Position numbers and translations under genes: made by a program. DNA of 64,000 nucleotides from Dehalococcoidia bacterium (GTDB lineage Bacteria; Chloroflexota; Dehalococcoidia; Lucifugimonadales; UBA3495): contig OZ242043.1 of the NCBI GenBank assembly GCA_965205185.1, forward strand, positions 967,682 to 1,031,681, written 5' to 3'. Below are positions 1-64,000 of the stretch, piece by piece (position 1 is the first letter of the stretch; every line of letters starts with the position of its first letter). The notes beneath the pieces were generated by a model that was not told the DNA's origin, made no database searches, and saw only the letters and a list, made by a program, of their open reading frames with translations.

Positions 1-174
1 TATCGCTGGATTATGGGAAACAGTTTGTCAATCATCGTGGTCATCGCCAACCTTGCTTTAAGGATAAGTATCAATCGCCCGGGGCGCCGGAAAAACGCCA
101 ACGCCCTATAGTTTAACGCATACGGGCGGCGATCTACAGTCCAAAATCCGCCAATGCGGGCGCCGGCGCAACGC

Positions 175-894
175 TTATCCCCCCGGCTTGTCGCCCCAGT
201 GCAGGCAAACCGTGCCGAACCCCAAGCGGCGGTAGCCGACCCCGGCCAGCCCGGCATCGCGCAAGATGCCGGCCAACTCCCCGGCGTCGTAAAAGCGGTC
301 TACCGATTGCGGAAGGTAGGTATAGGCGGCGCGGTCGCCGGCGATCAGCTTGCCGATCAGCGGCACCAGCCCGTGGAAATACACCCGGAACAGCCGCGCC
401 TTGATCCCGGTTTCCATCGGCGAAAGCTCCAGCAATGCCACCCGGCCGCCGGGGCGCACCACCCGCGCCATTTCCCCGATGGCCTGCCGCGCATCGGGCA
501 TATTACGCAGGCTGAAACCGGCAGTGGCGCAGGCGAAAGTTCCCGCCGGAAAGGGCAGCGATAACGCATCGCCTACCATCAAGCTGATATTGCCCGCCCG
601 GCGCCCGGGCGCTTTGCTTCGCGCCCGGGCGATCATTTCCGGCAGCAGGTCAAGCCCCACCGTAAGCCCGGCCCCGGGGCGGCGGGCCAGGCGAAAGGCC
701 AAATCGCCGGTGCCGGTGGAAACGTCCAGCGCCGGGCCGGGTAGCGCCTCAGTTGCCAGCGCTGCCGTCCGCGCTTTCCATCCCCGGTGCATCCCCAGCG
801 TCATAACATCGTTCATCAAGTCATAATGGCCGGCGATGCGGGAAAAGAGTTCGGCGACATAACGCTGCCGGGCCGCGCCGGTCAGCGTCGCCAC
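175..894 (-). CDS. ubiE: Demethylmenaquinone/ubiquinone C-methyltransferase (UbiE/MenG family)
   Basis: 239-aa ORF. 'VAELFSRIAGHYDLMNDVMTLGMHRGWK' and the SAM-binding 'LDVSTGTGDLA' are UbiE/MenG signatures. Last gene of the ubiD-ubiA-ubiX operon. Confidence 0.9.
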   Translation of the reverse strand: MATLTGAARQRYVAELFSRIAGHYDLMNDVMTLGMHRGWKARTAALATEALPGPALDVSTGTGDLAFRLARRPGAGLTVGLDLLPEMIARARSKAPGRRAGNISLMVGDALSLPFPAGTFACATAGFSLRNMPDARQAIGEMARVVRPGGRVALLELSPMETGIKARLFRVYFHGLVPLIGKLIAGDRAAYTYLPQSVDRFYDAGELAGILRDAGLAGVGYRRLGFGTVCLHWGDKPGG

Positions 895-1241
895 GGCAGC
901 CGCAGGGGATGCAGGGTGCGGCTGAACGGGTTTAGCAGCAGCCCCATAGTTTCCAGCGTAACCGCGCCTAGCAGCGGTTGGTCATCGCCCGGTTCGCCGA
1001 GGATTACCGGCGTGTAGCCATGCGCCTGCGGCAGGGCCAAATGGCAATAAGACACTTGGCGGTTTACCGACGTGCCATCCGCCAGCACGAACCGCTCCTC
1101 GCGGTATGGCTCCAGCCCTAGAGATCGCCAAGTTTCCGACGGCAGCAGGGAATACGCGACGCCGCTGTCCACCAGAAACTCAAGGGTTTCCTCTTGCCCC
1201 TCATCCCCCTTGACTTGGCCTTGAATATAAGTCAGACCCAT
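882..1241 (-). CDS. Retropepsin-like (clan AA) aspartic protease, about 119 aa
   Basis: 'LEFLVDSGVAYSLLP' (D-S/T-G active-site loop) and C-terminal 'LLGAVTLETMGL', typical of small bacterial retropepsin-like proteins. Its ATG overlaps the ubiX stop (ATGA) and its 3' end overlaps the ubiE start by 13 nt. Confidence 0.7.
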   Translation of the reverse strand: MGLTYIQGQVKGDEGQEETLEFLVDSGVAYSLLPSETWRSLGLEPYREERFVLADGTSVNRQVSYCHLALPQAHGYTPVILGEPGDDQPLLGAVTLETMGLLLNPFSRTLHPLRLPWRR

Positions 1242-7789: not shown

Positions 7790-7963
7790 AATCGAAAATA
7801 TGCCCCGCTTGATATTGCCCCGAAACCTTGATTCAGTCAGACCGTTCCCCTTATTTCCTTGATTTCCATACCGGCCTGACGACCGGCGCGTTGCAGAGTA
7901 TACTAGCTTGCTTGACGGATATGCTATGCTTGACCAGAAAACTTGGGTTTTGGAGTATGCGGT

Positions 7964-8842
7964 ATGCCAAATTTTGACCCATTTGAGCGGCTGGTAAGGT
8001 ACGCGATGGTATCACGGAAAGATGAATTGGGCAAATTCAAGCCGCAATTTGCCGCTATCAATTCAGAGAATCGTCCTCAAAATTTCAAGAATATGAGTGA
8101 CAGTCAATTTCTTAGCTGGCTGGATTTTGCGCACCAGTACCTGCGAAATCAGTATGGCAATAATGTCAATTTCGTCACTTCAGACGCGAACAAATTTGGC
8201 TCGGATATTGAAATACCTGCCACAGGTATCCAAATCGAACTGAAAACAGGGTTAGTTACTAACGCCAATCTTGGCGTTGGCACGATTGCTTGGGCTATGG
8301 GAGACGAAAAAAGTAACGAGTTGAAAGAAATTGTAAATGGGAAAGAAATGACGAAGCGACATCAGCTATATGTTGCTGGCAAATTCGACGATATAAAAGA
8401 ATCTCAAGAGAGAGCTATGTCTGATCTATTAGCATATTTTCGCTCAAGAGTCACAGAAAAAGCTGACGCTCCACATAAATTGGAACATTTATCCAAATGC
8501 GTTGCCCGCGGAATTACAACGTTAAGTGAGTTCAAAAAACTGCTTAACATCAAAGAAAGCGATTGGAATTCCCCAGTCATTTTGCATACCAGTTTGGAAA
8601 GAGGTTGGGATATTGTATCTCGCGTTTTTCAGACGGATGAAAACCTGTTTATAGATAGGATTTTTCGTTCAGACCAATCCCAGGCAATCCCCCGCGCTCA
8701 AGTCCAGATCAAAGGTAAAAAGTCAAACATAACAGCAAGGATTTATCCTAATTACAAAAATTCACACTCACGCAACGGCATAAGAATTCCCGCAGAAAAT
8801 TGGGTTAAGAACCCATGTTTCCACGTCTGGATTTACGATTAG
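7964..8842 (+). CDS. Putative type II restriction endonuclease (PD-(D/E)xK-like)
   Basis: Low-GC ORF convergent with the adjacent N6-methyltransferase and overlapping it by 4 nt. Candidate catalytic motif 'GSDIEIPATGIQIELK' (D...E-x-K). No family recognised by eye. Confidence 0.5.
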   Translation: MPNFDPFERLVRYAMVSRKDELGKFKPQFAAINSENRPQNFKNMSDSQFLSWLDFAHQYLRNQYGNNVNFVTSDANKFGSDIEIPATGIQIELKTGLVTNANLGVGTIAWAMGDEKSNELKEIVNGKEMTKRHQLYVAGKFDDIKESQERAMSDLLAYFRSRVTEKADAPHKLEHLSKCVARGITTLSEFKKLLNIKESDWNSPVILHTSLERGWDIVSRVFQTDENLFIDRIFRSDQSQAIPRAQVQIKGKKSNITARIYPNYKNSHSRNGIRIPAENWVKNPCFHVWIYD

Positions 8843-9708
8843 GTTTTTATCGGAAGCGATAACACCCCGTAACGTCGGATATACTCCTCGACCAAATCCC
8901 CTTTGCGAAAACCGGGAGTGCTGGTAGTGTTTTGGATAGCGAGGGCCGCGTAATCAATTTCGTCGCGCAATCGTTTGAGAACAGTTTTGTTCCTGGCTTT
9001 AAGCAGCATCCACTGCTTATGCTTTTCGCAGTTATTCGCGTCGGTTTCCCTACGGGTATAGTTTTGCCATCCTTGACAAGGTACGGCGAAGTCAAACTCA
9101 TTATCAAAAACTTTGAGCGCTTCTTTCGTGTTGTTGTACTGCCACAGATCGAAGTCATAATGCCTGATCGACGGCGGGGTAAACAGCCGATTATTGGCGT
9201 GTCCGCTGTCTTTTTTGGTCCAGACCTGGAACTCCGTATTTACTGAATACAGCTTTCCATTAGGGGTTTGGAACGAATCGCGAGGCAGGGGCAATGCGTA
9301 TATTAACTTGAAATCCGCCGGCAGTTGTTTGTGAATAAAATACTTCCTGAAAATTATCGGCAATATGAAAGCGATAGTATCCGCAAATCCTGCGGCTTTG
9401 ATAAAGAAATTCACTGCCATTTTCCCCCGCTTGCCAAAAGGGGGATTGCCTACTATTACAGTCGTCTCCGCCGGGTTGGGGCAGTCGTAATCGCCGCATA
9501 GAAAATCGAAATTCGCTACTTCGCAATGCCGCGGCTCTATATCGAAACCGGCTCGCCGGCCTTGGGGCAGCAAGTCATAAAAAGCCCCATCCCCGGCGGA
9601 CGGTTCGATAAAGAATGTATCATCCCCCAGTCCCAAATCCCGCATCACGGGAACGAGGCTGTCCCAGCATTGAGCCGCTACCGGCCGCTGTGTATAGAAC
9701 TCATCCAT
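8839..9708 (-). CDS. Gamma-class N6-adenine DNA methyltransferase (type II R-M M subunit)
   Basis: Motif I 'FIEPSAGDGAF' precedes motif IV 'VIVGNPPFG' (NPPF). Low GC like its partner gene. The ATG at 9708 is preferred over the TTG at 9768. Confidence 0.8.
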   Translation of the reverse strand: MDEFYTQRPVAAQCWDSLVPVMRDLGLGDDTFFIEPSAGDGAFYDLLPQGRRAGFDIEPRHCEVANFDFLCGDYDCPNPAETTVIVGNPPFGKRGKMAVNFFIKAAGFADTIAFILPIIFRKYFIHKQLPADFKLIYALPLPRDSFQTPNGKLYSVNTEFQVWTKKDSGHANNRLFTPPSIRHYDFDLWQYNNTKEALKVFDNEFDFAVPCQGWQNYTRRETDANNCEKHKQWMLLKARNKTVLKRLRDEIDYAALAIQNTTSTPGFRKGDLVEEYIRRYGVLSLPIKT

Positions 9709-9821
9709 TGGAAATTGCCTTGACCTCGAGATGCCACGTATTATGCAGGATTGCCAAAAAACCTTCAAAGGCCAAGTGTCACCAAATTCGGCGGATTCGC
9801 AAGAATCTTGAACTGCCGCCC

Positions 9822-20170: not shown

Positions 20171-20259
20171 TTTCAACCCCCTGCCGCGCCGTTTCCGGGC
20201 ATTATAATCGAAATTGCCGGAAAACCGTAAGCCGGACGCGATCATAAATCCGTTGACTA

Positions 20260-20288
20260 TTGAACGAATTACAAAATTTTCTTAAAAT
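20260..20288 (+). promoter_or_regulatory. Candidate sigma70 promoter of dnaN
   Basis: TTGAAC (20260-20265), 17-nt spacer, TAAAAT (20283-20288), in an AT-rich intergenic region. Confidence 0.35.
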
Positions 20289-20396
20289 CTTGTAAAAATG
20301 TGCAAGGCAGACCGCCCGCTCCGGCGTCTTATAATGGCAAGCTAATTGGCGGCCCGCGGCCAGTGCCGGGGCCTGACGTTCAGGGGCTTTGACATT

Positions 20397-21557: not shown

Positions 21558-21585
21558 CCCCAAAACCAACGGCAGCCCCAAAGCT

Positions 21586-21635
21586 AATTCATCCTGATCT
21601 TGTCGGATCATCCTGAGCTTGTCGAAGGATGATCC
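21586..21635. repeat. REP-like hairpin element (CATCCTGAGCTTGTCGAAGGATG family)
   Basis: Inverted-repeat arms CATCCT/AGGATG. Related copies lie at 32111-32143 and, in tandem, at 59445-59618. Confidence 0.75.
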
Positions 21636-21787
21636 CCGCCCCCGCCAACGCCCCTGATGCCAATCAGGGGCGTAACCACGCTTAAAATACCCCCCAATGG
21701 CCTGCCCATCCCTATCTAATGACACTTCCCCCTTGCCAACCCCCGAAACCCATTCCTACAATAGATGCATTATCCCCTCCCCGCGCC

Positions 21788-42933: not shown

Positions 42934-43075
42934 CGTTAGCCTTATTGCGAAATCTTGACAATGCGCTTACGGAATCCCGCTATTTCTTATGTTGCCCATT
43001 CTGCCGGATTCCGCAACCGCATTTGTTGCCTTCCGTGAGGCTGAACTACCCAGCAAATGGAGCGCATAACGAAAG

Positions 43076-43638: not shown

Positions 43639-43639
43639 T

Positions 43640-45863: not shown

Positions 45864-47189
45864 ATGGGGGTTGATTTGTTGGATGGGGATGGGGTTCGGG
45901 TTGTTTGCCGGCCGGGTCGGTTGGGGGGGGAGTTGCGGGTGCCGGGGGATAAGTCGGTGTCGCATCGGGCGCTGATTCTGAATGCTATGGCTTTGGGGGC
46001 GGCGCGGGTTTCGGGGCTTTCGGATGGGGCGGATGTGGGGTCTACGATGGCTTGTTTGCGGGGGATGGGGGCGGAAATCGCGGCGGGGGATGCGGCGGGG
46101 GAGTGGGTAGTCGTGGGGCGGGGGCCGGAGCTGGTTGAGCCGGGGGATGTGCTGGATGCGGGGAATAGCGGGACGTCGATGCGGCTTTTGGCGGGGCTTT
46201 TGGCGGGGCAGCGGTTTTTGGCGGTGATTACGGGGGACGGGTCGTTGCGCTCGCGGCCGATGGGGCGGATTGTGGAGCCTTTGCGGCGGATGGGGGCGGA
46301 GGTGACGGGACGGCGGGACGGGACGCTGGCGCCGCTGGTGATACGGGGGGGCGGGCTGCGGGGGATGGAGTATGATTTGCCGGTGGCGAGCGCTCAGGTT
46401 AAGTCGTGTATTTTGCTGGCGGGGTTGTCGGCGGAGGGGGATACGGTGATTCGCCAGCCGGCGTTGTCGCGGGATCATACGGAGCGGATGATGGCGGCGA
46501 TGGGGGCGGGGGTGGAGGTGGACGGGCTGGATTTGCGGTTGCGGCCGGGGGCGCTGAGGGCGGTGGATGTGTCGGTGCCGGGGGATATTAGCTCGGCGGC
46601 GTTTTGGATGGTGGCGGGGTTGTGCCATCCCGATGCGCGGGTGCTGGCGCGGGGGGTGGGATTGAATCCGAGCCGGACGGGGATTATTGATGTTTTGCGG
46701 GCGATGGGGGCGGGGGATAGTTTGCGGTTGCTGGATGAGCGGGTCGAGGGGGGGGAGCCGGTGGCGGATGTGCTGGTGACTTCGGGGCGGTTGCGGGGGA
46801 CGGAAATCGGGGGGGAGATGATACCGCGGATTTTGGATGAGGCGCCGGTTTTGGCGGCGGCGGCTTGCTTCGCGGAGGGGAAGACGGTGATCCGGGATGC
46901 GGCGGAGTTGCGGGTTAAGGAGTCGGATCGGATTGCGACTACGGTGGCGGAACTTTCACGGCTGGGGGCGGATATTGAGGCGCGGGAGGACGGGATGGTG
47001 ATACGGGGAGGGCGGGGGCTGAGGGGGGCGGATTGCGAGTCGCATGGGGATCATCGGCTGGCGATGTCGCTGGCGGTGTGCGGGCTGTTGGCGGAGGGGG
47101 AGACGCGGGTGCATGGGGCGGGGGATGCGGCGGTGTCGTATCCGGGGTTTTGGGATGATTTGGCTGTTTTGGCGAATCAAGGGGGTTAG
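45864..47189 (+). CDS. aroA: 3-phosphoshikimate 1-carboxyvinyltransferase (EPSP synthase)
   Basis: 'VPGDKSVSHRALIL', 'LDAGNSGTSMRLLAG' and 'RVKESDRI'. Confidence 0.9.
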   Translation: MGVDLLDGDGVRVVCRPGRLGGELRVPGDKSVSHRALILNAMALGAARVSGLSDGADVGSTMACLRGMGAEIAAGDAAGEWVVVGRGPELVEPGDVLDAGNSGTSMRLLAGLLAGQRFLAVITGDGSLRSRPMGRIVEPLRRMGAEVTGRRDGTLAPLVIRGGGLRGMEYDLPVASAQVKSCILLAGLSAEGDTVIRQPALSRDHTERMMAAMGAGVEVDGLDLRLRPGALRAVDVSVPGDISSAAFWMVAGLCHPDARVLARGVGLNPSRTGIIDVLRAMGAGDSLRLLDERVEGGEPVADVLVTSGRLRGTEIGGEMIPRILDEAPVLAAAACFAEGKTVIRDAAELRVKESDRIATTVAELSRLGADIEAREDGMVIRGGRGLRGADCESHGDHRLAMSLAVCGLLAEGETRVHGAGDAAVSYPGFWDDLAVLANQGG

Positions 47190-52819: not shown

Positions 52820-52957
52820 GGCGGCGCTCCTGTTGGCGGGTTAGTCGGCGGATGGGTGGAGTTTAATATAGGATGGGGGCTGGGCGCAACCGGGGGGGCG
52901 GCGATGTATCCGGTGGCGGGGCGTTTGGTGGCGGGGCGTTGGCGGTGTATGCCGTGG

Positions 52958-52986
52958 TTGACACTGTTTTAGCCGGGCAACATAAT
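52958..52986 (+). promoter_or_regulatory. Sigma70-type promoter of pncB
   Basis: TTGACA (52958-52963), 17-nt spacer, CATAAT (52981-52986). Confidence 0.4.
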
Positions 52987-53038
52987 ACGGGCATCTTGGG
53001 AAGGGCTTAATTTGGGGGATTTGGGTTTATGCGGGGTT

Positions 53039-54481
53039 ATGAGCAGACCTAATTTGGCGTATGGGGACGGGCAACTGGGGTTGTTTACGGACCTGTATGA
53101 GTTGACGATGGCGCAGGCGTATTTCCGGCAGGGGATGGTGGCGCCGGCGACTTTCAGTTTGACGGTGCGGGGTTATCCGCCGGATCGGGGGTATTTGGTG
53201 TCGGCGGGGCTGGAGGATGCGCTGGATTATCTGTCGGGGCTGCGGTTTGACGGGGAGGCGGTGGGGTATTTGCGGTCGTTGGGGATCTTCGGGGCGGATT
53301 TTTTGGAGTTTTTGCGGGGGCTGCGGTTTACGGGGGGCGTGCGGGCGATACCGGAGGGGCGGCTGTTTTTTGCGGATGAGCCGGTGCTGGAGGTTACGGC
53401 GCCGATTGTTGAGGCGCAGTTGGCGGAGACTTATGTGATCAATCAGTTGAATTTGCAGACGACGCTGGCGACGAAGGCGGCGCGTTGCGTGTGGGCGGCG
53501 CGGGGGCGGGGGATCGCGGATTTTGCGTCGCGGCGGACGCAGGGTTCGGATGCGGCGATGAAGATGGCGCGGGCGAGTTATATTGCGGGGTTTGGGTCGA
53601 CCAGTAATGTGCTGGCGGCGAGGCAGTACGGGATACCGCCGGCGGGGACGATGGCGCATTCGTTTATATCGAGTTTTCCGTCGGAGTTGGATGCTTTTCG
53701 GGCTTATGCCGATTGCTTTCCCGACCGGACGGTGCTGTTGTTGGATACTTATGACACTTTGGCGGGGGCTTGGAATGCGGTGGCGGTGGGGAAGGAGCTG
53801 GAGGCGGCGTATCCTGATGATGCGGGGCGGCGGCTGGTTGCGGTGCGGCTGGATTCGGGGGATTTCGGGGAGTTGAGCCGTAGGGTTAGGCGGGTGCTGG
53901 ATGATGCGGGGCTGGGGTATGTGAAGGTGCTGGTTAGCGGGGGGTTGGATGAGTATGCGATGGAGGGGCTGGCGGAGGGGGGGGCGCCTATTGATTTGTT
54001 CGGGGTGGGGACTAAGGCGGGGGTGTCGGCGGATGCGCCGTGGTTGGATATGGTGTATAAGCTGGTGGGTTTTGACGGGCGGCCGGTGATGAAGTTGAGC
54101 GAGGGGAAGGTTTCGTTGCCGGGGGCGAAGCAGGTTTTCCGGCGGCGGGGGGGTATGCCGGAATTGGATTCGGATTCGGGGGAGGGGTTGTCGGGGGATG
54201 TTATCGGGCTGGAGGGGGAAGTTGGGCCGGCGGGGGCGGAGGCGCTGCTGCGGGAGGTGATGGTCGGCGGGGAGCGGACGGAGGGGCCGGCGACGGCGGG
54301 GGAGTTGCGGGAGCGGTTTAGGGAGGAGTTTGCGGCGTTGCCGGAACGGTTTAAGGTTTTGCGGCGGCCGCCGCGGTTTCCGGTGTCGGTCAGCTCGCGG
54401 TTGCAGCGTTTGACGGCGGAGACGCGGGCGGCGGCGGAGTTGGCTAATGTTTCGGGCGAGTCGGGTCGGGGTGGGAGGTAG
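53039..54481 (+). CDS. pncB: Nicotinate phosphoribosyltransferase
   Basis: Start at the ATG at 53039. 'LFTDLYELTMAQAYF', 'DFASRRTQG' and 'GTMAHSFI'. Confidence 0.85.
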   Translation: MSRPNLAYGDGQLGLFTDLYELTMAQAYFRQGMVAPATFSLTVRGYPPDRGYLVSAGLEDALDYLSGLRFDGEAVGYLRSLGIFGADFLEFLRGLRFTGGVRAIPEGRLFFADEPVLEVTAPIVEAQLAETYVINQLNLQTTLATKAARCVWAARGRGIADFASRRTQGSDAAMKMARASYIAGFGSTSNVLAARQYGIPPAGTMAHSFISSFPSELDAFRAYADCFPDRTVLLLDTYDTLAGAWNAVAVGKELEAAYPDDAGRRLVAVRLDSGDFGELSRRVRRVLDDAGLGYVKVLVSGGLDEYAMEGLAEGGAPIDLFGVGTKAGVSADAPWLDMVYKLVGFDGRPVMKLSEGKVSLPGAKQVFRRRGGMPELDSDSGEGLSGDVIGLEGEVGPAGAEALLREVMVGGERTEGPATAGELRERFREEFAALPERFKVLRRPPRFPVSVSSRLQRLTAETRAAAELANVSGESGRGGR

Positions 54482-54488
54482 GGGGATT

Positions 54489-55796
54489 ATGGGGACGCCT
54501 AATTTTGCGAACCGGACTTTGTATTACGGGGATAATCTGCCGGCTTTGCGGCGGATGAATAGCGAGACGGTGCATTTGATTGCGACGGATCCGCCTTTCA
54601 AGAAGCAGCGGGGGTTTTTCAGCGATGCCGGGGGGTATGATGATCGTTGGACTTGGCAGAGGGATATTCTGGGGCTGGATCGTAAAGGAAATGCGGTAGC
54701 GGAAAATCATGATGATTGGGTTGACCAGATTCAGGATGATTGGCCGGGGGCTTGGATGGTTATTGCGGCGGCGCGTAGCACTTATGGCGATGATATGGGG
54801 GCTTTTCTGTGCTGGCTTGGGGTGCGGTTGATGGAGCTGCGGCGGATCTTGCGGAATGACGGCAGTATTTATATTCATATAGACGAAACGGCGGTTCACG
54901 ATGATGCGGGGTTGGTGTATTGGCCGAAACGGGGTTCGGTGCCTCAACAAAAGCGGTATGTTGATGAAAATCCGGGTACGCCGGTAACGGATGTTATTGA
55001 TGATCTAGGGCCGTTGGGGGCTCATGCGCGGGAACGGACGCGGTATCCGACGCAGAAGCCTTTGGCGTTGTATGAGCGGATTATACGGGCGTCGAGTAAT
55101 CGGGGGGATGTGGTGCTGGATCCGTTTTGCGGGTGCGCTACTACGCCGGTGGCGGCGGAGCGTTTGGGGCGGCAGTGGGTGGGGATGGATCTTTGGGAAC
55201 AGGCATACGATAAAGTTGCCAGCCGTTTGCGGGAGTATGGGATCTTGGTTGACAACCCGGAGTTGGATGGGGCGGTTAATGAAAACGGGATGATGCGGTT
55301 TAACGAGTACCGGCTTACTTTGATTGATAATAAGGATAAGGGGGAGGAGTTTCCGGCGCGGACGGATGATAATGAAGTGGCGGCGCCGGCGCTGAATTTG
55401 CGGCGTCCGCGGCCTACGGAGCCTTGGCAGCAGTTGAGTAATGCGTTGATCCGGCGTATTTTGGTGGCGGCGCAAGGGCGGAATGGGTTGGTGGGGTGCG
55501 CTGGTTGCGGGCGGGCGCTGGAGGCGGATTTCTTTCATTTGGATCAGATCAGTCCTAAGTCGCAGGGGGGCGAAAACTATATTACTAACCGGATATTGAT
55601 TTGCGCTCCTTGCAATAGCCGGAAGTCGGATACCAAGACGCTGAAGGGGTTGCAGAATGATAACCGGCGGGAGAGGTGGATGAAGGATCGGAAGTTGGCG
55701 GAGGAGATGCAGTCGCTGGCGCGGATGCGGGCGGAGTGGGTGCGGGATCATTGGGATACGGAGCAGTGCCGGGAGTTTATTGCGCGGTTGCAGTAG
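54489..55796 (+). CDS. Beta-class (N6_N4_Mtase) DNA methyltransferase fused to a C-terminal HNH nuclease domain; methyltransferase core unusually short
   Basis: Motif IV 'IATDPPF', 'YPTQKPLALYERII' and motif I 'VVLDPFCGCATT'. C-terminal 'CAGCG...HLDQISPKSQGG...CAPCNSRK' (HNH). Confidence 0.8.
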   Translation: MGTPNFANRTLYYGDNLPALRRMNSETVHLIATDPPFKKQRGFFSDAGGYDDRWTWQRDILGLDRKGNAVAENHDDWVDQIQDDWPGAWMVIAAARSTYGDDMGAFLCWLGVRLMELRRILRNDGSIYIHIDETAVHDDAGLVYWPKRGSVPQQKRYVDENPGTPVTDVIDDLGPLGAHARERTRYPTQKPLALYERIIRASSNRGDVVLDPFCGCATTPVAAERLGRQWVGMDLWEQAYDKVASRLREYGILVDNPELDGAVNENGMMRFNEYRLTLIDNKDKGEEFPARTDDNEVAAPALNLRRPRPTEPWQQLSNALIRRILVAAQGRNGLVGCAGCGRALEADFFHLDQISPKSQGGENYITNRILICAPCNSRKSDTKTLKGLQNDNRRERWMKDRKLAEEMQSLARMRAEWVRDHWDTEQCREFIARLQ

Positions 55797-55938
55797 CGGG
55801 GATTGCAGGGTTCTTGGTTTGGCTGGAATGGTGGCATAGGCGGGGCGGGTGGGTGCGGGGGATTGTGGGTTGGGTGGGAATGATGGCAGCGGGGGATTGC
55901 GGGGGGGGGATGGCGAGTTTGCTTGAAAGGGGTTGATT

Positions 55939-57861
55939 GTGAAGACGGTTGTTTGTATGAAGTATGTTCCGGTGATTGCGCGGATGCGGTTTGATTATGA
56001 GGCGCGGACGATTGTGCGGGAGGGTGTGCCTTCGGAGGTGAACGGGTTTGATTTGCTGGGGGTGGTTCGGGCGGTGGAGTTGAAGTCAGGGGATGATGAT
56101 GAGGTGGTGGTGTTGACGATGGGGCCGCCAGGGGCGCGGGAGGGGTTGGTGCATTGTTTGGCGTTGGGGGCGGATCGGGGGGTGCTGGTTACGGATCGGG
56201 CGTTGGCAGGGAGCGATACTTTGGCGACAGCGCGGGCGCTGGCGTTGGCGTTGGGGCGGGAAGGGGCGGATTTGATTATCTGCGGGCGCAACAGCACGGA
56301 CGGGGAGACGGGGCAGGTGGGGCCGGAGTTGGCGGAGTTGATGGGGCTGCCTCATGTGGGTCATGTGCGGCGTTTGGAGTTGCGGGAGGATCGGCGGGCG
56401 GCGGTGGTGGAGCGGATAACGGATGAGGGGTATCAGACGCTGGAGTGCGATTTGCCGGCGGTGATTTGCGTTACGGAGGGGGTGGCGCCGGAGTTGTTTC
56501 CGAACCGGCAGCAGATGGAGGAGGGGGCGGGCAAGCCGGTGGAGGAGGTGTCGTGCGCTGAGTTGTCGGGGGATCCGCTGTTGTTCGGGGCGGCGGGTTC
56601 GCCTACTTGGGTGAATGAGATCCGGCTGGTGGAGCCTAACCGGCTGGGGGTTATGTTGCAGGATACGGCGCCGGGGGAGGCGGCGCGGCAGATCGCGGAG
56701 TCGGTGCGGGGGCGGCTGGCGGAGCTGGCGGCGGCGGGGCCGTCGGCGGGGGGGGATGATCGGCGGGTGTTGCCGCGGTATCCGGGGGTTAGGGAGCGGA
56801 GCGTTTGGGTGGTGGCGGAAAATGCGCGGGACGGGCTGGCGCACGTTACTTTCGAGATGCTGGGGAAGGCGCGGGAGCTGGCGGGGGTTACGCGGAGCGA
56901 GGTTGCGGCGGTGGTGATCCGTCCGGGGGCGGGTTACGGGGGGGATAGGGACGGGGGGTTGGGCGGCGGTTTGGGTTGGGGGGAGTCTAGTCTGGCGGTG
57001 GGGAACGCTTATGCCGGGGCGTTGGCGGCGGCGGGGGCGGATCGGGTGCTGGCGTTGGATAGCGGGCCTTTGGGGCCGGTGTTCGGGCGGGGGGTGGGGG
57101 CGTGTTTGGCGGAGGCGGTGTTGCGGGAACGGCCTTACGCGCTGCTGTTTGCGTCTACGGCGGATGGGCGGGATTTGGCGGCGCGGCTGGCGGCGCGGCT
57201 GGGATTGGGGCTGACGGGGGATGCGATTGATTTGGAGATTGACGATGATGGGCGGCTGGTGCAGCTGAAGCCGGCGCTGGGGGGGAATGTGGTGGCGCCG
57301 ATTTTGTCGCGGACTTTGCCTAATCTGGTTACTTTGCGGACGGGGCTGCTGTCGCCGGCGGCGCCGGATGGGGGGGCGACGGCGGCGGTGGAGGTATTGG
57401 CGGGGGGCGATGGGGTTGGGGGGGGGCGGGAGGTTCGTTTGGTTGGGGAAGTGTTGGCGGAGGATCGGGAGGGTTTGGCGTTGGCGCGGGCGCGGGTGGT
57501 GTTGGGGCTGGGGATGGGCGCGGGGGAGGGGAATGTGGGGATGTTGCGGGATATGGCGCGGTCGGTGGGGGCGTCGGTGGCTACAACGCGGGATGTGGTT
57601 CATGCGGGATGGCTGCCGCAACAGTTGCAGGTGGGGATCAGTGGGCGGACGATTGCGCCTACAGTGTATATTGCGGTGGGGATACGGGGGGCGTTTAATC
57701 ATACGGTCGGGTTGCAGCGGGCGGGGGTTATTGTGGCGGTGAATCAGAATCGGCGGGCTACGATATTTCGGTCGGCGGATTTCGGGGTGGTGGGGAGTTG
57801 GGAGGAGTATTTGCCGCCGTTGCTGGAGGCTTTGGGTCCGGTGTTGGCGGGGTTGGGGTAG
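55939..57861 (+). CDS. etfBA: Fused electron-transfer flavoprotein beta+alpha subunits (EtfB-EtfA single polypeptide)
   Basis: The GTG at 55939 gives 'MKTVVCMKYVP' (EtfB N-terminus). 'LIICGRNSTDGETGQVGPELAEL' is EtfB. The C-terminal half 'YIAVGIRGAFNHTVGLQRAGVIVAVNQN' is EtfA FAD-binding. The junction is Gly-rich. Confidence 0.8.
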   Translation: MKTVVCMKYVPVIARMRFDYEARTIVREGVPSEVNGFDLLGVVRAVELKSGDDDEVVVLTMGPPGAREGLVHCLALGADRGVLVTDRALAGSDTLATARALALALGREGADLIICGRNSTDGETGQVGPELAELMGLPHVGHVRRLELREDRRAAVVERITDEGYQTLECDLPAVICVTEGVAPELFPNRQQMEEGAGKPVEEVSCAELSGDPLLFGAAGSPTWVNEIRLVEPNRLGVMLQDTAPGEAARQIAESVRGRLAELAAAGPSAGGDDRRVLPRYPGVRERSVWVVAENARDGLAHVTFEMLGKARELAGVTRSEVAAVVIRPGAGYGGDRDGGLGGGLGWGESSLAVGNAYAGALAAAGADRVLALDSGPLGPVFGRGVGACLAEAVLRERPYALLFASTADGRDLAARLAARLGLGLTGDAIDLEIDDDGRLVQLKPALGGNVVAPILSRTLPNLVTLRTGLLSPAAPDGGATAAVEVLAGGDGVGGGREVRLVGEVLAEDREGLALARARVVLGLGMGAGEGNVGMLRDMARSVGASVATTRDVVHAGWLPQQLQVGISGRTIAPTVYIAVGIRGAFNHTVGLQRAGVIVAVNQNRRATIFRSADFGVVGSWEEYLPPLLEALGPVLAGLG

Positions 57862-57980
57862 GGGTCGGGACGTTATTGTTGGGGGTTTTGGGCGGGGTTA
57901 GGGCGAGTTGGCGGGGGCGGGCGTTTTTATTACGGGGGCAATTTGGGGGTAATTCGGACGATGGCAGGGGGCAGGTTGCT

Positions 57981-59489
57981 ATGGGCGGGCATTTCTATTA
58001 TGGGGACTGCTTGGGGGTGATGCGGGATTATGTTGCTGATGGTTCGGTGGATCTGATTTATTTGGATCCGCCTTTTAAGTCGGATGCGGATTATAATATG
58101 TTGTTTGCCGGGCCGGATGGGGCGGTTGCGGCGGGGGCGGAAGTGCGGGCGTTTGGGGATACTTGGCGGTGGGGGGCGGAGGCGCGGGGGGAGTTTGATC
58201 AGGTTTGTCGGGATGTTCCCGATGTGGGGGTTAAGCTGGAGGCGATGCGTAGTATTGTGGGGGAGTGCGGGATGATGGCTTATCTTTCGCGGATGACGGT
58301 TCGGTTGGTTGAGATGCGGCGGGTGTTGAAGCCTGGCGGTAGTATTTATTTGCATTGCGATCCGACGGCTAGTCATTATCTTAAGGTGATGATGGATGCG
58401 GTGTTTCATCCGGTTGGGGGGCGTTTGCGGAGTGAAATTATTTGGCGGATTGGGTGGGTGTCGGGTTATAAGACGCGGCGGCGGGGGTGGATTCGGAATC
58501 ATGATACTATTTTGTATTATGCTTTGGGGGACAAGTTCACTTTTAATAAGGAATATATTGCATATCCTGACGGCTACCGGCGGCGGGATGGTAGTTTGCC
58601 TACGGGTTTGGGGATACCGATTGAGGATACTTGGAATTGCAATCGGGCGGATGTGCTGGATTCGATAATGATCAAGAGTTTTTCGCGGGAAAAGTTGGGG
58701 TATCCGACGCAGAAGCCGTTGGATTTGTTGCGGCGGATTGTGCGGGCTTCGAGCAATGCGGGGGATGTGGTTTTGGATCCGTTTTGTGGGTGCGGGACGG
58801 CTTGTCATGCGGCGGCGGAGTTGGGGCGGGGTTGGATTGGGATTGATGTTACGGCGTTGGCGCTGCCGGTGTTGCGGGCGCGGTTTGATGCGTCGGGGAT
58901 GGGGGCGGATTTCGGGGTTACGGGGATGCCGGCGTCGGCGGAGGATTGGCGGGTTTTGGCGGGGAGTAATCCGATGGAGTTTGAGCGGGCGGCGATGGGT
59001 TTGATTGACGGGTGCCGTCCGTATTCGCAGCGGCGGGGCGGGGGGGATGGGGGGATTGACGGGCTGATTCCGGTGGCGGTGGGGCGGGATCGGTGGGGGT
59101 ATGTGGCGGTGTCGGTGAAGGGGGGCCGGCAACTTAATCCGGCGATGGCGCGGGATTTGCGGGGGACGGTGGAGCGGGAAAGCCGGAATGGGGTGGTGGC
59201 GGGGGCGCTGGTTACGGCGTATCCGGTGACGGCGGGGATGCGGCGGGAGTTGGACGGGGCGGGGGATGTCGATATTTTGGGGCGTTCTTGGCCTAAGTTG
59301 CAGGCGGTTACGGTGGAGGAGGTTTTGGAGCGGAAGGGGCGGGGGCTGCCGGAGTTGTCGCTGCCGTTGCAGGCGGCGGCGCCGTTGGCGCGGGTGGGGC
59401 TGGCGCGGGGGGAGGTTGGGGGGCAGTACCGGCTGGAGGGGGGTGTCCTTCGACAGGCTCAGGATGATCCTTCGACAGGCTCAGGATGA
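57981..59489 (+). CDS. Beta-class DNA methyltransferase fused to a C-terminal Mrr-like PD-(D/E)xK nuclease domain
   Basis: 'IYLDPPF', 'SEIIW', 'YPTQKPLDLLRRIV' and 'VVLDPFCGCGT'. C-terminal 'GGDGGIDGLI...YVAVSVKGG' (Mrr_cat pattern). The last codons and the stop lie inside the REP array. Confidence 0.8.
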   Translation: MGGHFYYGDCLGVMRDYVADGSVDLIYLDPPFKSDADYNMLFAGPDGAVAAGAEVRAFGDTWRWGAEARGEFDQVCRDVPDVGVKLEAMRSIVGECGMMAYLSRMTVRLVEMRRVLKPGGSIYLHCDPTASHYLKVMMDAVFHPVGGRLRSEIIWRIGWVSGYKTRRRGWIRNHDTILYYALGDKFTFNKEYIAYPDGYRRRDGSLPTGLGIPIEDTWNCNRADVLDSIMIKSFSREKLGYPTQKPLDLLRRIVRASSNAGDVVLDPFCGCGTACHAAAELGRGWIGIDVTALALPVLRARFDASGMGADFGVTGMPASAEDWRVLAGSNPMEFERAAMGLIDGCRPYSQRRGGGDGGIDGLIPVAVGRDRWGYVAVSVKGGRQLNPAMARDLRGTVERESRNGVVAGALVTAYPVTAGMRRELDGAGDVDILGRSWPKLQAVTVEEVLERKGRGLPELSLPLQAAAPLARVGLARGEVGGQYRLEGGVLRQAQDDPSTGSG

Positions 59490-59618
59490 ATGATAAGGCC
59501 GGGATGTTCGACAAGTTCAGGATGATCCTTTACAGGCTCAGGATGAGTGATAAGGCCGGGATGTTCGATAAGCTCAGGATGATCCTTCGACAAGCTCAGG
59601 ATGAGTGATCTGGCGGGG
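59445..59618. repeat. Tandem array (about 5 units) of REP-like hairpins TCCTTCGACAGGCTCAGGATGA
   Basis: Lies at the convergent junction of two methyltransferase genes. Same family as 21586-21635 and 32111-32143. Confidence 0.8.
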
Positions 59619-59669
59619 TTGGGGTTTGTTAAGGTGCGTTGGGGCGCGGGTGTTGTCCGGTTTTGTGGG

Positions 59670-61400
59670 TTATAGGCCCATTGGGTTTTGGCGGGCGTAG
59701 GCTTGGCCGTAGATTTGCATGGCTTGGGCTTGCGCCCAGTCGAGATTGATTAGGTCGTTGATGGTGTCGACCATTAGTTCGCCGGCGTGGGCGATTTCTT
59801 GGCGGTATTCGGCCAGCGCAACGCGGCGGTTGTTTTTGCGGAGGTTGTGGTAGGGGCACATTGGGGCGCGGTTTTGGATGTCGTTGCTGGCGCCGGTGTT
59901 TTGTTTGCTTTTGGGGGCGATGTGGTCTAGGTGGAAGTTGCGGGTGGTTTGGATGATGCGGCCGTCGGGGCGGCGGTTGGCGAAGCCGCAGCACCAGGCT
60001 TGGTAGTTGGATAGTTTTAGCAGTTCCTCGAGCATTTGGGGTTCGGGGATGATGCTGGCGGGGACTTTGAAGGTGCGTTCCGGCAGGCGGAAAACGGGGG
60101 GCGGGGTTTCGGTTTCGGGGGATGTGCGTTTGGGTAGTTGGTTGGGGCCGTAGATGGTTACGGTGGGGTTGTCGGGGGTTACTTGCTGGCCGGGGGCGGC
60201 GTGGTCGGCGCAGGTTAGCAGGGCTAGATTGGGTTTGTTGAATTGGCGCTTGAATACGGTCCAGGCGCGGGGTTGGATGTCGCAGGCGATCCATTGGCGC
60301 TGGAGGCGCTCGGCGGCTACGGCGACATAAGCGCAACCGGCGAAACAGTCTAGTACGACGTCGCCGGGGTTGGTGGCGGCGGCGATTATGCGCTCGGCGA
60401 GGGCTACGGGTTTTTGGGTGGGGTAGCCGGTTTTTTCTTTGCCGCGGGCCGCGGGGATGTCGTTCCAGATGTCTTGTAACTTGACGCCTTTGGCGTTATC
60501 CAGATATTTTTTGTAGCGGAAGGGGGAGCCGGGTTTTGTTTGCACTAATAGGCCGGCTTGGTACATTTGCTCCATACGTTTCGGCTCGAATCGCCAGGCG
60601 CGGGTTAGGCCGCGAAATTCGTAGGGCTTGTTGCCGCCGGATTCGTTGGTGCAGGGGAAGGTTTGATAGCGGCCGCGGGCATCCTGTTGGTCGTAGCCTT
60701 TTTCGATATACTCCGGGTCATAGGGCTGATATTGGATGTTGTATTTCGCTTTTTCGGATTTGGCGTGCCAAAAGATGGTGTCGTGGATGTTGCCTAGTCG
60801 CTGCCGGGCCAAGTTGTGCTTTTCTTGACGGCGCAGGAAGGATATTTCGTTGCGGAAGTTTTTTTGGCCGAAAATGGCGTCCAGCAGTTGGCGGAGGTAT
60901 CCGTTGGCGGTGTGGTCGCAGTGCAGGAAAAGGCTGCCGGTGGGTTTGAGTATGCGGCGGATTTCCAGTAATCGGATTGCCATATAGCAGAGGTAAGCCG
61001 CCGTGCTGTCGGAGTGGGTATGACGGGTTACTTCGATGAGGGCGGCGATTTGTGAGTAATTTTGTTGGAGTTCCAGTAGCCAGGACTCGTGGACGTCTTT
61101 GCCCCAGTTCCAGAAGTCTTTGTAGGCGGTTTCGGGCCAGTCGATGCCGGCTTTTTCGGCGTCGGTCTTATTTTGTATTCCCCAATGGGCGAGCAGGCGG
61201 AACTCGTTGGCGCGTTCCGCGTCGGTCAAGGGCGGCTTGAGGGGGTCTTTATCGCGCTGGTTTTTGCGGCCGAAGGTTTCGTTTTTGGCGAAGGGCGGGT
61301 CGATGCATACGAGGTCGATGCATTCGTTGTTGAGGGATTGGAGGAAGTCTAGGTTGTCGGCGATGTATACGCCGCGGTTGATGGCGTTGAAGTCGGGCAT
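59670..61400 (-). CDS. Beta-class DNA methyltransferase fused to a C-terminal HNH nuclease domain (copy A)
   Basis: 576 aa. 'VCIDPPF', 'FRNEISF', 'GYPTQKPVALAERII' and 'VVLDCFAGCAY'. C-terminal 'WCCGF...HLDHIAPKS...CPYHNLRK'. Confidence 0.85.
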   Translation of the reverse strand: MPDFNAINRGVYIADNLDFLQSLNNECIDLVCIDPPFAKNETFGRKNQRDKDPLKPPLTDAERANEFRLLAHWGIQNKTDAEKAGIDWPETAYKDFWNWGKDVHESWLLELQQNYSQIAALIEVTRHTHSDSTAAYLCYMAIRLLEIRRILKPTGSLFLHCDHTANGYLRQLLDAIFGQKNFRNEISFLRRQEKHNLARQRLGNIHDTIFWHAKSEKAKYNIQYQPYDPEYIEKGYDQQDARGRYQTFPCTNESGGNKPYEFRGLTRAWRFEPKRMEQMYQAGLLVQTKPGSPFRYKKYLDNAKGVKLQDIWNDIPAARGKEKTGYPTQKPVALAERIIAAATNPGDVVLDCFAGCAYVAVAAERLQRQWIACDIQPRAWTVFKRQFNKPNLALLTCADHAAPGQQVTPDNPTVTIYGPNQLPKRTSPETETPPPVFRLPERTFKVPASIIPEPQMLEELLKLSNYQAWCCGFANRRPDGRIIQTTRNFHLDHIAPKSKQNTGASNDIQNRAPMCPYHNLRKNNRRVALAEYRQEIAHAGELMVDTINDLINLDWAQAQAMQIYGQAYARQNPMGL

Positions 61401-61455
61401 TTTTGCTCCAGTCGCGGGCGGGTTTGGCGTTTATTATAGCATAGGCGTTTGCCGG

Positions 61456-62721
61456 TTAAGGTGTTTTGGGGCGATTGGAATCCTTTCCGGGGATGGCGCT
61501 GGCGGGGACTTTGAATTGGCGTTTCGGCAGGCGGAAATTTCGGGGCGGGGGTTGGGGTTGGGGGGTTGTGCGGGTGGGTAGTTGGTTGGGGCCGTGGATG
61601 GTTACGGTGGGGTTGTCGGGGGTTGCTTGCTGGCCGGGGGCGGCGTCGTCGCAATGCAGGGGCGGGTTTAGTAATTCGGTTTTGGTGAATTGACGCTTGA
61701 ATACGGTCCAGGCGCGGAGGTTTAGATCGCAAGCGGTCCATTGGCGGTTCAGGCGTTCTGCGGCGATGGCGGAGTAGGCGCAGCCGGCGAAGCAGTCTAC
61801 TACAACGTCGCCGGGGTTAGTGGTAGCGGCGATTATGCGCTCGGCGAGGGCGATGGGTTTTTGGGTGGGGTAGCCGGTGCGCTCGGTTGGCAGGCGGCCG
61901 ACCGGGGGGAAATCGGCCCACCATGATTCCGGGATTTTGCCGCGGTCGCGGGAATGGTCGATGTTATCCTCGTTCAGTTGTCCGCCTATTTTGGCGGAAC
62001 TTTTGGCTTGCTGGGTATTCAATTGTTGGTAGGGGATGCGTACCGCATCTCGGTTGAAAGTCCATTGTTCGGATTTGGAGTACCAGAATATAGTGTCGTG
62101 TTTGCGGGGGAACCATCGGCGGGTGTTGCTGGGGCCGGTGTAACACCAGGCGATTTCGTTGCGGAAACCGGGGGAGCCGTTTTCGCCATTGCCGAAAATG
62201 GCGTCCAGCAGTTGGCGGAGGTATCCGCCGGCGGTGTGGTCGCAATGGAGGAAAAGGCTGGCGGCGGGTTTGAGGATGCGGCGGATTTCGATCAGGCGGA
62301 TGGCCATATAGCATAGATAGGCCGCCGTGCTTTCGGAGTGGATGTAGCGGGTGGTTTCGATTAGTTGGTTGACGGCGGGGAAGTGGCGCGCGATGCTATT
62401 GAGCCAATCCTCGTGGATGTCGTTTTCCCAGGACCAGGCGTCATGGTAGCCTCCGCTGGTCCTGGTGCCGTAGGGCCAGGCGATTTCGTTGTTGGCGGCG
62501 TCTTTGGGGACGTGGATGCCCCATTCGTCGAGGAGGCGTTTTTCGTTGTTGATTTCTTGGTGGGATAGGGGGGGCTTTATTTTGTCGGCGGTGAAGGTTT
62601 CGTATTTGGCGAAGGGGGGGTTGATGGTTACGAGGTCGACGGTGGCGTTGTTGATGGCGCGGAGGAAGGCGAGGTTGTCGGCGATGTAGACGCCGCGGTT
62701 GATGGCGTTGAATTTGGGCAT
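61456..62721 (-). CDS. Beta-class DNA methyltransferase, paralog lacking the HNH domain (copy B)
   Basis: Start at the ATG at 62721 ('MPKFNAINRGVYIADN'). 'VTINPPF', 'FRNEIAW' and 'GYPTQKPIALAERII'. It ends just after the conserved linker '...FKVPASAIPG'. The upstream 229 residues of listed ORF 61456..63408 are an out-of-frame read through copy C. Confidence 0.8.
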   Translation of the reverse strand: MPKFNAINRGVYIADNLAFLRAINNATVDLVTINPPFAKYETFTADKIKPPLSHQEINNEKRLLDEWGIHVPKDAANNEIAWPYGTRTSGGYHDAWSWENDIHEDWLNSIARHFPAVNQLIETTRYIHSESTAAYLCYMAIRLIEIRRILKPAASLFLHCDHTAGGYLRQLLDAIFGNGENGSPGFRNEIAWCYTGPSNTRRWFPRKHDTIFWYSKSEQWTFNRDAVRIPYQQLNTQQAKSSAKIGGQLNEDNIDHSRDRGKIPESWWADFPPVGRLPTERTGYPTQKPIALAERIIAATTNPGDVVVDCFAGCAYSAIAAERLNRQWTACDLNLRAWTVFKRQFTKTELLNPPLHCDDAAPGQQATPDNPTVTIHGPNQLPTRTTPQPQPPPRNFRLPKRQFKVPASAIPGKDSNRPKTP

Positions 62722-62741
62722 TATTTCGCTCCGGTCGTTTT

Positions 62742-64000
62742 TTATAGGCCCATTGGGTTTTGGCGGGCGTAGGCTTGGCCGTAGATTTGCATGGCCTGGG
62801 CTTGGGCCCAGTCGAGGTTGATTAGGTCGTTGATGGTGTCGACCATTAGTTCGCCGGCGTGGGCGATTTCTTGGCGGTATTCGGCTAGGGGGATGCGGCG
62901 GTTGTTTTTGCGGAGGTTGTGGTAGGGGCACATTGGGGCGCGGTTTTGGATGTCGTTGCTGGCGCCGGTGTTTTGTTTGCTTTTGGGGGCGATGTGGTCT
63001 AGATGGAAGTTGCGGGTGGTTGGGATTATCCGGCCGTCGGGGCGGCGGTTGGCGAAGCCGCAGCACCAGGCTTGGTAGTTGGATAGTTTTAGCAGTTCCT
63101 CGAGCATTTGGGGTTCGGGGATGATGCTGGCGGGGACTTTGAAAGTGCGTTCCGGCAGGCGGAAAACGGGGGGCGGGGTTTCGGTTTCGGGGGATGTGCG
63201 GGTGGGCAATTGGTTGGGGCCGTGGATGGTTACAATGGGGTTGTCGGGCGTGACTTGCTGACCGGGGGCGGCTCGGTCGGTGCAGGTTAGCAGGGCTAGA
63301 TTGGGTTTGTTGAATTGGCGCTTGAATACGGTCCAGGCGCGGGGCTGGATGTCGCAGGCGATCCATTGGCGTTGGAGGCGCTCGGCGGCTACGGCGACAT
63401 AAGCGCAACCGGCGAAACAGTCCAGGACAACATCGCCGGGGTTGGTGCTGGCTTTGATTATGCGCTCGGCGAGGGCTACGGGCTTTTGGGTGGGGTAGCC
63501 GGTGCGTTCATTGGACGATGGCGATAGTAGTTTGATGTCGGTCCAGATGTCATTGACTTTTACGCCTATGTCGGCTTCCGGGGGTCTGAGTATTGACGGG
63601 GTGTTTCCGGTAGACCAATGAATCAGTCCGGCTTCGGCGAGGGCGTCCAGCCGCTCCTTGATGCTTTCGATTTCTTTGAATCCGGGGATTGCGTTGTTAT
63701 GGATCCAGTCGGCTAACTCGCCGGTTCTAGGGACGCCCCAATGGCGGCCTATTTCGGTGGGGTTGTAACCCCGCCAAGGTTGCCCGGATTCTCCGGTTCG
63801 TGTTATTCCTGCCGCAGTTAGGGGGACTCGGGTGGGTTTGGTGTTGGCGGCGGCGCTGTGTATCGGGCGCCAGGTGGGGGCGTCGGTTTTAGCGTATTGG
63901 AGGATTGAGTCGTGGGTGTTTCCCCATTTGTTCCCGGTGTTTCTGCCGGGGGAGCGGCCCCATATTATTTCGGCCTTGAAATTGTCGGGGGCGAAGACGG
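62742..64000 (-). CDS. Beta-class DNA methyltransferase fused to a C-terminal HNH nuclease domain (copy C), 5' end beyond the window
   Basis: My own translation continues in frame upstream of listed ORF 62742..63209 ('...FKAEIIWGR...ERTGYPTQKPVALAERIIKASTNPGDVVLDCFAGCAY...') to the window edge. The HNH module is nearly identical to copy A. Confidence 0.8.
   Translation of the reverse strand, partial: VFAPDNFKAEIIWGRSPGRNTGNKWGNTHDSILQYAKTDAPTWRPIHSAAANTKPTRVPLTAAGITRTGESGQPWRGYNPTEIGRHWGVPRTGELADWIHNNAIPGFKEIESIKERLDALAEAGLIHWSTGNTPSILRPPEADIGVKVNDIWTDIKLLSPSSNERTGYPTQKPVALAERIIKASTNPGDVVLDCFAGCAYVAVAAERLQRQWIACDIQPRAWTVFKRQFNKPNLALLTCTDRAAPGQQVTPDNPIVTIHGPNQLPTRTSPETETPPPVFRLPERTFKVPASIIPEPQMLEELLKLSNYQAWCCGFANRRPDGRIIPTTRNFHLDHIAPKSKQNTGASNDIQNRAPMCPYHNLRKNNRRIPLAEYRQEIAHAGELMVDTINDLINLDWAQAQAMQIYGQAYARQNPMGL

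Follow-up and report, generated by a model that had tools for sequence, protein, structure and literature searches.

In a 64-kb window of a contig from a soil- or water-type Dehalococcoidia bacterium (OZ242043.1, positions 967,682 to 1,031,681; "the window" hereafter means this whole stretch), genes follow one of two opposed synonymous codon dialects, and the dialect of a gene depends on its orientation relative to a compositional switch at ~32.0 kb. We attribute this split to a lineage-specific and very strong replication-linked mutational asymmetry that is amplified at synonymous sites by the preference of the clade for G/C-ending codons, a reading to which we assign a probability of roughly 70%. 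The data examined comprise these 64 kb, plus ~10 kb in an 86% relative. We defined 42 genes from the open reading frame (ORF) listing with per-codon-position composition, and 37 of these have a Pfam match. Overall G+C is 62%. In 2-kb windows, GC skew of the + strand lies between -0.1 and -0.27 over 1-27 kb, is ~0 at 27.5-32.0 kb and reaches +0.3 to +0.5 over 32-64 kb; AT skew is the mirror of GC skew, with brief dips to zero at 37-40 and 42-44 kb. We refer to the two flanking regions as the left and right arms, and to genes transcribed away from or toward the switch as co-oriented or head-on, respectively. Transcription runs away from ~32.0 kb in 33 of the 42 genes, making the G-rich strand also the gene-rich strand.

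Of the 42 genes, 40 have a coding-strand G-C skew at four-fold degenerate sites whose sign is the one expected from their orientation relative to the switch. The two exceptions, a Mo-hydroxylase (28933-31263) and a PQQ-propeller gene (36973-39237), both lie within skew-free segments. A preliminary description of the window, made from its letters alone and referred to below as the sequence-only reading, had proposed that third-position composition separates genes by orientation, and the per-gene values computed at four-fold sites bear this out. The sign is set by position and not by gene orientation as such: within each arm, genes of both strands share the composition of the + strand, and in the right arm four-fold G on the + strand is ~.85-.9 for + and - genes alike. 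Native right-arm + genes carry G.72-.89, T.07-.21, C.02-.08 and A 0-.03 at these sites, whereas - genes carry C.56-.91, A.09-.20, G 0-.15 and T 0-.09; aroA and otsA illustrate the two classes (Table 1). When right-arm codons are pooled, 90% of 4616 codons in 11 + genes end in G or T and 85% of 2497 codons in five - genes end in C or A. The favoured synonymous codon differs between the strands of this arm for all amino acids but Cys, for which TGC is favoured in both dialects. No gradient is detectable along the right arm across native genes, whose four-fold GC skew (GC4 skew) stays between 0.81 and 1.00. The left arm has the mirrored polarity in weaker form, with absolute GC4 skew of 0.1-0.74. 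Its co-oriented genes, on the - strand, have G.46-.78 and C.12-.38 at four-fold sites (ubiE, G.47 and C.38; hyuA, G.72 and C.18), and its T-A component is inconsistent. The proposal that codons end almost only in G or T, or almost only in C or A, according to orientation is therefore accurate for the right arm and overstated for the left. Skew is largest at synonymous sites and smaller at codon positions 1 and 2. The window holds no tRNA genes or Rfam matches; a standard bacterial tRNA set, with GNN plus CNN or UNN anticodons, reads both C- and G-ending codons, and the special demand on translation suggested in the sequence-only reading is probably trivial.

Stop codons, spurious reading frames and proteins divide in the same manner. 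TAA terminates seven of eight head-on genes and five of 27 co-oriented genes (Fisher p = 8e-4), and long spurious ORFs rich in Pro, Arg and His (at least 150 aa, with these three residues making up at least 35%) number nine on the + strand and none on the - strand in the left arm, and 15 on the - strand and none on the + strand in the right. Both trends had been proposed in the sequence-only reading, which described stop-codon choice as tracking orientation and the strand of Pro/Arg-rich spurious ORFs as flipping at the switch, and both are confirmed by these counts. The strands also differ in the direction of protein drift. Where the window departs from a residue shared by two ordinary relatives, + genes show net changes of Gly +58, Arg +23, Val +21, Ile -27, Thr -19, Ser -18 and Pro -14, and - genes show Ile +16, Gln +15, Pro +10, Val -23, Gly -16 and Glu -15. 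Gly makes up 13.1% of residues in the + gene set and 5.1% in the - set, and Pro 4.7% and 9.1%.

The asymmetry is also visible in recent substitutions. We compared the window with sister strains (L085 for the left arm and L001 for the right), with segments of balanced composition as the cleanest case, and found a current transition asymmetry of roughly two- to three-fold that is mirrored across the switch. The MFS transporter and Mo-hydroxylase genes of the left arm differ from L085 by 63 {A,G} and 21 {C,T} changes on the + strand; third-position transitions in these genes affect.065 of + strand purines per site and.034 of pyrimidines (p =.017), and the corresponding values for the N6 methyltransferase gene are.051 and.025. 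In the right arm, the balanced island at 42.3-43.6 kb differs from L001 by 29 {C,T} and 10 {A,G} changes (.044 vs.016 per site, p =.005), and skewed genes show.047 transitions per site at pyrimidines vs.019 at purines (p = 3e-5). A raw 2x2 test across the arms gives p = 3.6e-7, and ordinary relatives, used as a control, are symmetric ({C,T} 563 vs {A,G} 560 differences). Current asymmetry is similar in size in both arms although left-arm skew is weaker and heterogeneous; this arm is apparently not at compositional equilibrium. A and C are both depleted on the same strand, and Ile and Val shift in opposite directions by strand; composition and these opposite shifts would fit elevated C>T and A>G on that strand, but the small polarised counts bear this out for C>T (18 vs 5 T>C) and not for A>G (4 vs 5 T>C). 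We discarded a seemingly unusual C<->G transversion signature, which accounts for 10-21% of differences here and for 18-29% in ordinary relatives.

Several features of local sequence accompany these patterns. G-quadruplex-type motifs (four tracts of at least three G) number 69 on the + strand and three on the - strand of the right arm, or 2.2 per kb, and two on the + strand and nine on the - strand of the left arm. In right-arm + genes, the third-position C fraction is 0.43 after G and 0.14-0.20 after other bases, and C is also kept before G. Trinucleotide context ratios were rejected as a signal due to confounding by the skew of neighbouring bases, leaving only this modest third-position retention after G. 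Mutation that depends on sequence context, or methylation that protects C, could account for the retention of C beside G.

Sister and relative contigs were identified by homologue searches with AroA, GlcB and UbiE, together with contig look-ups, and their comparison restricts the trait to one lineage. The pattern is present in three independent assemblies of this lineage at 96-97% nucleotide identity. A long-read contig from ENA (L001, 96% nucleotide identity) shows the same right-arm extremes, a short-read scaffold (L085) matches the left-arm values gene by gene, skew-free genes included, and the skew is reproduced in L090 as well. A Logan assembly with an AroA identity of 88% (L083) has a slightly weaker pattern (G.69-.78). 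In relatives with the same gene order and 80-84% protein identity (L002, L084 and L087), overall GC skew is ~0.02-0.05. We split four-fold skew into a strand component, R, and a coding-strand component, T; R is 0.04-0.22 and T is ~-0.1 in the syntenic relatives, vs an R of ~0.9 in the right arm of the window and a T of ~0 in the window. The aroA orthologues of ordinary relatives have G.44-.47 and C.38 at four-fold sites, and total four-fold G+C, at ~.88 here, is the same as in relatives. A survey of 80 aroA loci from species-representative genomes (~21 kb each), the nearest of which are metagenome-assembled Dehalococcoidia genomes at 57-79% identity, yielded no comparable skew, with absolute GC skew of at most 0.14 at every locus. 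The degree of bias, which had seemed exceptional in the sequence-only reading, is exceptional against both the 80 loci and the syntenic relatives, and the latter lack the split. Two further comparisons were set aside. L086 (88% GlcB), considered for dating the onset of the trait, has little skew at dnaN and glcB and may represent a different lineage from L083, and an RpoB motif in the G/T dialect, used as a finder in metagenome contigs, matched 49 loci, every one of them in an ordinary low-GC organism.

We envision the following mechanism. Mutation would strip cytosine, and less clearly adenine, from one strand far more than from the other, the depleted strand being the + strand to the right of ~32.0 kb and the - strand to its left. 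Two replication forks would diverge from this point, with the lagging-strand template remaining single-stranded and subject to deamination of C to U, read as T. Given the preference of the clade for G or C at silent sites, a C lost to T would eventually be replaced by G, which is not attacked, so that silent sites would ratchet toward G on the leading-strand sequence and toward C on its complement. The expected outcome would be opposite codon sets and stop-codon choice, with amino acids drifting toward Gly, Val and Arg on one side and toward Pro, Gln, Ile and Asn on the other, and segments that had recently arrived or been inverted would appear as skew-free islands that are not yet converted. 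We infer the ratchet from two observations: four-fold G+C equals that of relatives, and intergenic skew is half as strong as four-fold skew. The link to replication, the chemistry of single-stranded DNA deamination and the existence of a lineage-specific cause likewise derive from the patterns reported here by inference. Loss of a repair function, acquisition of a deaminase or a modified replisome could each supply such a cause. A bolder proposal, to which we give somewhat less than even odds, is that very recent evolution in this free-living, high-GC branch of the Chloroflexota has produced the most strand-asymmetric chromosome described for any cell, with silent sites ~90% G on one strand, likely through one discrete alteration of replication or repair. 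Under this proposal the lineage might have lost uracil or hypoxanthine repair, gained a deaminase acting on single-stranded DNA, or acquired a replisome that keeps the lagging-strand template exposed for long periods.

A number of observations weigh against a purely replicative and mutational account. Intergenic GC skew is +0.45, about half of the +0.9 found at four-fold sites, indicating that mutation alone does not set the four-fold values. Spacers such as 33209-33433, 52820-53011 and 55797-55932 contain 10-18% C on the G-rich strand, vs 2-5% at four-fold sites. The two arms are unequal (~0.9 vs 0.1-0.74), a difference not expected from a simple model of symmetric forks; unequal or recently relocated forks may be responsible. 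There is no dnaA gene within the window, and its six matches to the DnaA-box consensus, vs 7.35 expected, are at chance level. In the circular OZ252223.1 the glcB block lies ~1 Mb from the aroA block, so that the arms are not adjacent, and in OZ242027.1 the ubi block lies ~275 kb from aroA and the relative orientation is reversed. On either side independent contigs stop short of the switch, L085 ending at window position 31327 and L001 starting at 41224, so that none spans it. Finally, substitutions polarised by outgroup are small in number: in the right arm, C>T 18 vs T>C 5, G>T 11 vs T>G 4, and A>G 4 vs T>C 5, with net skew unchanged; and in the left arm, a net + strand change of G -62 vs C -21.

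The switch itself is sharp, spanning ~50 nt inside a non-coding region of 1.1 kb (Table 1). The cumulative skew curve has a plateau at 27.5-32.0 kb and a local minimum at ~31,965-32,010. The dnaN gene is 10 kb from the switch and is not adjoined by dnaA. The AT maximum of the whole window (a 40-mer with 82% AT, 20256-20300) is found just upstream of dnaN, and skew is unchanged there. The replication-linked mutational asymmetry advanced in the sequence-only reading is upheld to the extent that the bias is position-dependent, concentrated at synonymous sites and accompanied by mirrored ongoing mutation; the switch itself is only a candidate replication origin. We also considered whether left-arm skew fades to zero leftward, as it might near a termination zone or second origin, and rejected this since an 86% relative regains a GC4 skew of ~0.4-0.65 beyond ubiE and prfA.

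An alternative view of the switch, which we consider unlikely, is that it is a rearrangement junction joining segments that acquired opposite skews elsewhere, with the weaker left arm an eroding relic. The separation of the arms in relatives implies that rearrangement contributed to the junction, and the closest complete relative carries the left block inverted with respect to the right; the weakness and heterogeneity of the left arm and the lack of dnaA or a DnaA-box cluster in the window also fit this view. However, the balanced left-arm genes show the mirror image of the right-arm transition asymmetry and not the right-arm asymmetry itself, and gene orientation diverges from the junction. 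Moreover, on the left-arm + strand the net loss of G (-62) exceeds that of C (-21), which means that negative skew continues to build up and is not decaying. The junction may well be a product of rearrangement, then, yet the left arm shows no relic-like behaviour, and its growing skew, taken together with the mirrored current asymmetry, argues that forks, or whatever sets the asymmetry, diverge at the switch. A sequencing or assembly artefact, whether strand-specific damage, miscalls or a chimeric join at 32.0 kb, is harder still to credit. A second assembly is lacking across 31.3-41.2 kb, the switch is G-rich and of low complexity, and L085 breaks at the window position given above. Yet the skew occurs in assemblies of long reads and of short reads, made from different samples, and its concentration at synonymous sites within intact ORFs is beyond what damage or base miscalling could produce and excludes them; a chimera would account for the juxtaposition of the arms only, not for the dialects.

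Selection, acting on strand-specific DNA features (G-tracts, G-quadruplexes or polar motifs) or on translation, could in principle take the place of mutation, and is made conceivable by the stronger skew of four-fold sites relative to intergenic DNA and by the 69 vs 3 strand distribution of G-quadruplex-type motifs in the right arm. We find it improbable nonetheless. A single cell translates both dialects, which leaves selection on translation no way to favour one codon set on one strand and the opposite set on the other; genes that recently arrived or were inverted are unskewed yet intact, and their substitutions are already strand-asymmetric; amino-acid replacements follow the same base changes; and the motif bias is an expected by-product of composition. 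Transcription-coupled asymmetry, in which the non-transcribed strand would be damaged or the transcribed strand repaired, has in its favour that most genes of each arm share one orientation. It is very improbable, however, as otsA, otsB and the TPR gene match aroA in + strand composition, and dnaN and glcB match hyuA, although these groups are transcribed in opposite directions, and the coding-strand component of skew is only ~-0.1 in relatives and ~0 here. We therefore favour replication-linked mutational asymmetry, amplified at silent sites, as the explanation of the two dialects.

On this explanation, the window presents an extreme form of a known phenomenon, replication-strand asymmetry, with ordinary sister lineages built in. 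Strand-specific codon usage occurs in Borrelia burgdorferi and its relatives, Ehrlichia and Lawsonia intracellularis (McInerney 1998 and Lafay 1999, as cited in PMC6042203; PMC2671203), and in a survey of 7,738 bacterial genomes the low-GC Borreliaceae were extreme outliers, with high-GC genomes much more constrained (PMC6042203). As in Borrelia, Ehrlichia and Lawsonia, leading-strand sequence in the window is rich in G and T, codon usage and amino acids split by strand, the sign of skew is set by position relative to a switch, and horizontally acquired genes stand out. In contrast to those cases, four-fold GC skew here reaches ~0.9-1.0, the codon sets are nearly exclusive, the arms are unequal, and syntenic relatives at 80-84% protein identity are ordinary. 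Furthermore, the known bacterial extremes are low-GC, host-associated and reduced genomes, whereas the window has 62% GC and a broad metabolic gene set. We found no published bacterial case of comparable size in the literature.

Closer matches in magnitude come from organelles. The mitogenome of Galdieria sulphuraria, with a GC skew of 0.74, has been called the most skewed of any genome (PMC4316638), and in animal mitochondria the richness of one strand in G+T is explained by C and A being deaminated while the DNA is single-stranded (PMC3269012). The window resembles these mitogenomes in the size of its silent-site skew, in its G+T and A+C strands and in its reshaped proteins, and the chemistry proposed for animal mitochondria is that of C and A deamination in long-lived single-stranded DNA (PMC3269012). 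Overall skew here is 0.4-0.5, codon positions 1 and 2 being constrained. Unlike mitochondria, the window is a region of a bacterial chromosome in which two mirrored polarities meet at a point, with no gradient over the 32 kb of the right arm. These features speak against strand displacement of the mitochondrial type, which would produce a single polarity and a gradient. A cytosine-deaminase mutator in E. coli builds replication-oriented GC skew through elevated C deamination (PMC6263442), which supports the chemistry proposed here; it was a laboratory system observed for a short time, whereas the lineage described here is natural and at or near compositional equilibrium in one arm.

The determinants of replication-strand bias (deamination, polymerase errors, repair or selection) have been argued over since the 1990s, mostly on weak signals. 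The signal reported here is about ten times stronger than in close relatives with conserved gene order, so that a difference in gene content offers a direct lead to its cause. If our interpretation is correct, comparison of the sister genomes could point directly to a determinant of the size of GC skew, and the lineage would constitute a natural experiment on the cause of strand bias in bacterial genomes. It also shows the reach of mutation bias over codon usage and proteins in a free-living bacterium, and serves as a warning for gene callers, codon-based detectors of horizontal transfer and phylogenetics applied to such genomes.

The skew-free segments can be used as internal clocks for gene arrivals and inversions. 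Atypical composition and absence from relatives, the two marks of a horizontally acquired island, coincide at 36973-40134, and do not coincide at the N6 methyltransferase or Mo-hydroxylase genes. The segment at 36973-40134 is not present between the abhydrolase and NMT1 genes in L002 and L084 and was probably acquired. The convergent ORF pair at 7943-9768 is probably a recent acquisition as well. The Mo-hydroxylase is 82% identical to an opposite-strand gene near glcB in OZ252223.1 (L088, 20748-22265), whereas GlcB is only 71% identical; the sequence comparison suggests a recent local inversion, or exchange with a relative, and the gene is native to the clade and has probably been inverted.

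Table 1. Coordinates of the arms, the switch region, example genes and skew-free segments of the window
Feature	Position	Strand	Remarks
Left arm	1-27256	both	+ strand enriched in C and A; 18/22 genes on -; four-fold GC skew -0.10 to -0.74 (+ strand terms)
Left-arm genes			ubiE/X/A/D, ABC transporter, hyuA/B, PIG-L deacetylase, two Uma2 genes, large N6 methyltransferase, AlaX-like gene, dnaN, glcB, nitroreductase, solute-binding protein, MFS transporter, Mo-hydroxylase
Convergent ORF pair, 299 and 309 aa	7943-9768		GC 0.47, skew-free, no Pfam match; between ABC transporter and Lin0512-family gene
Large N6 DNA methyltransferase gene	16688-19444	-	skew -0.07; position conserved in relatives
dnaN and glcB	20346-24341	+	left-arm head-on genes; four-fold C.69 and.75
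MFS transporter and Mo-hydroxylase	27517-31263	-	almost no skew; plateau of cumulative skew curve
C/A-rich run (+ strand)	31861-31995		non-coding; GC skew -0.64; many CCACA-type motifs; last left-arm polarity
G/T-rich stretch (+ strand)	31996-32350		non-coding; GC skew +0.46; also carries G-tract repeats
AT-rich 40-mer, locally highest	32033-32078		in the G/T-rich stretch
27-nt tandem repeat	32228-32285		in the G/T-rich non-coding stretch
Right arm	32351-64000	both	+ strand rich in G and T; 13/18 genes on +; four-fold GC skew +0.81 to +1.00 in native genes
Right-arm genes			otsB/A, alpha/beta hydrolase, tyrA, aroA, gmk, lipA, amidohydrolase, TPR protein, NAPRTase, fused electron-transfer flavoprotein, four N6_N4 methyltransferases
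otsA	33434-34972	-	most extreme head-on gene; 259 four-fold sites with C.91, A.09, no G or T; Pfam Glyco_transf_20
PQQ beta-propeller and DUF4145 proteins	36973-40134	+	skew-free, lower-GC island
Composition-balanced island	42300-43600		right arm; used to gauge ongoing asymmetry
aroA	45864-47189	+	typical co-oriented gene; four-fold G.86, T.10, C.02, A.02; Pfam EPSP_synthase

Other features of the window are recorded here as observations in their own right. DNA methyltransferase genes are dense, with four N6_N4_Mtase genes, two of them fused to an HNH nuclease, at 54447-63408 and one N6_Mtase of 918 aa at 16688-19444; the last two N6_N4 methyltransferase genes of the right arm have skews of +0.76 and +0.58, below those of their neighbours. 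Six ~36-nt repeats (TAACCGCCCCGGGATAGGGGCGGCACGATTGAAG) recurring every 73 nt form a CRISPR-like array at 35293-35703, with no cas gene nearby, and at this position L002 and L084 have a Uma2 gene or a DnaJ gene instead. G-rich tandem arrays lie in or beside right-arm spacers at 33176-33377 (65 nt x3.1), 41830-42113 (86 nt x3.4) and 59449-59609 (57 nt x2.8). Lastly, a single 642-aa ORF at 55933-57861 combines an electron-transfer flavoprotein (ETF) beta-type domain with an ETF alpha FAD-binding domain and apparently encodes a fused ETF, whose counterpart in the sister contig L001 is 633 aa long.

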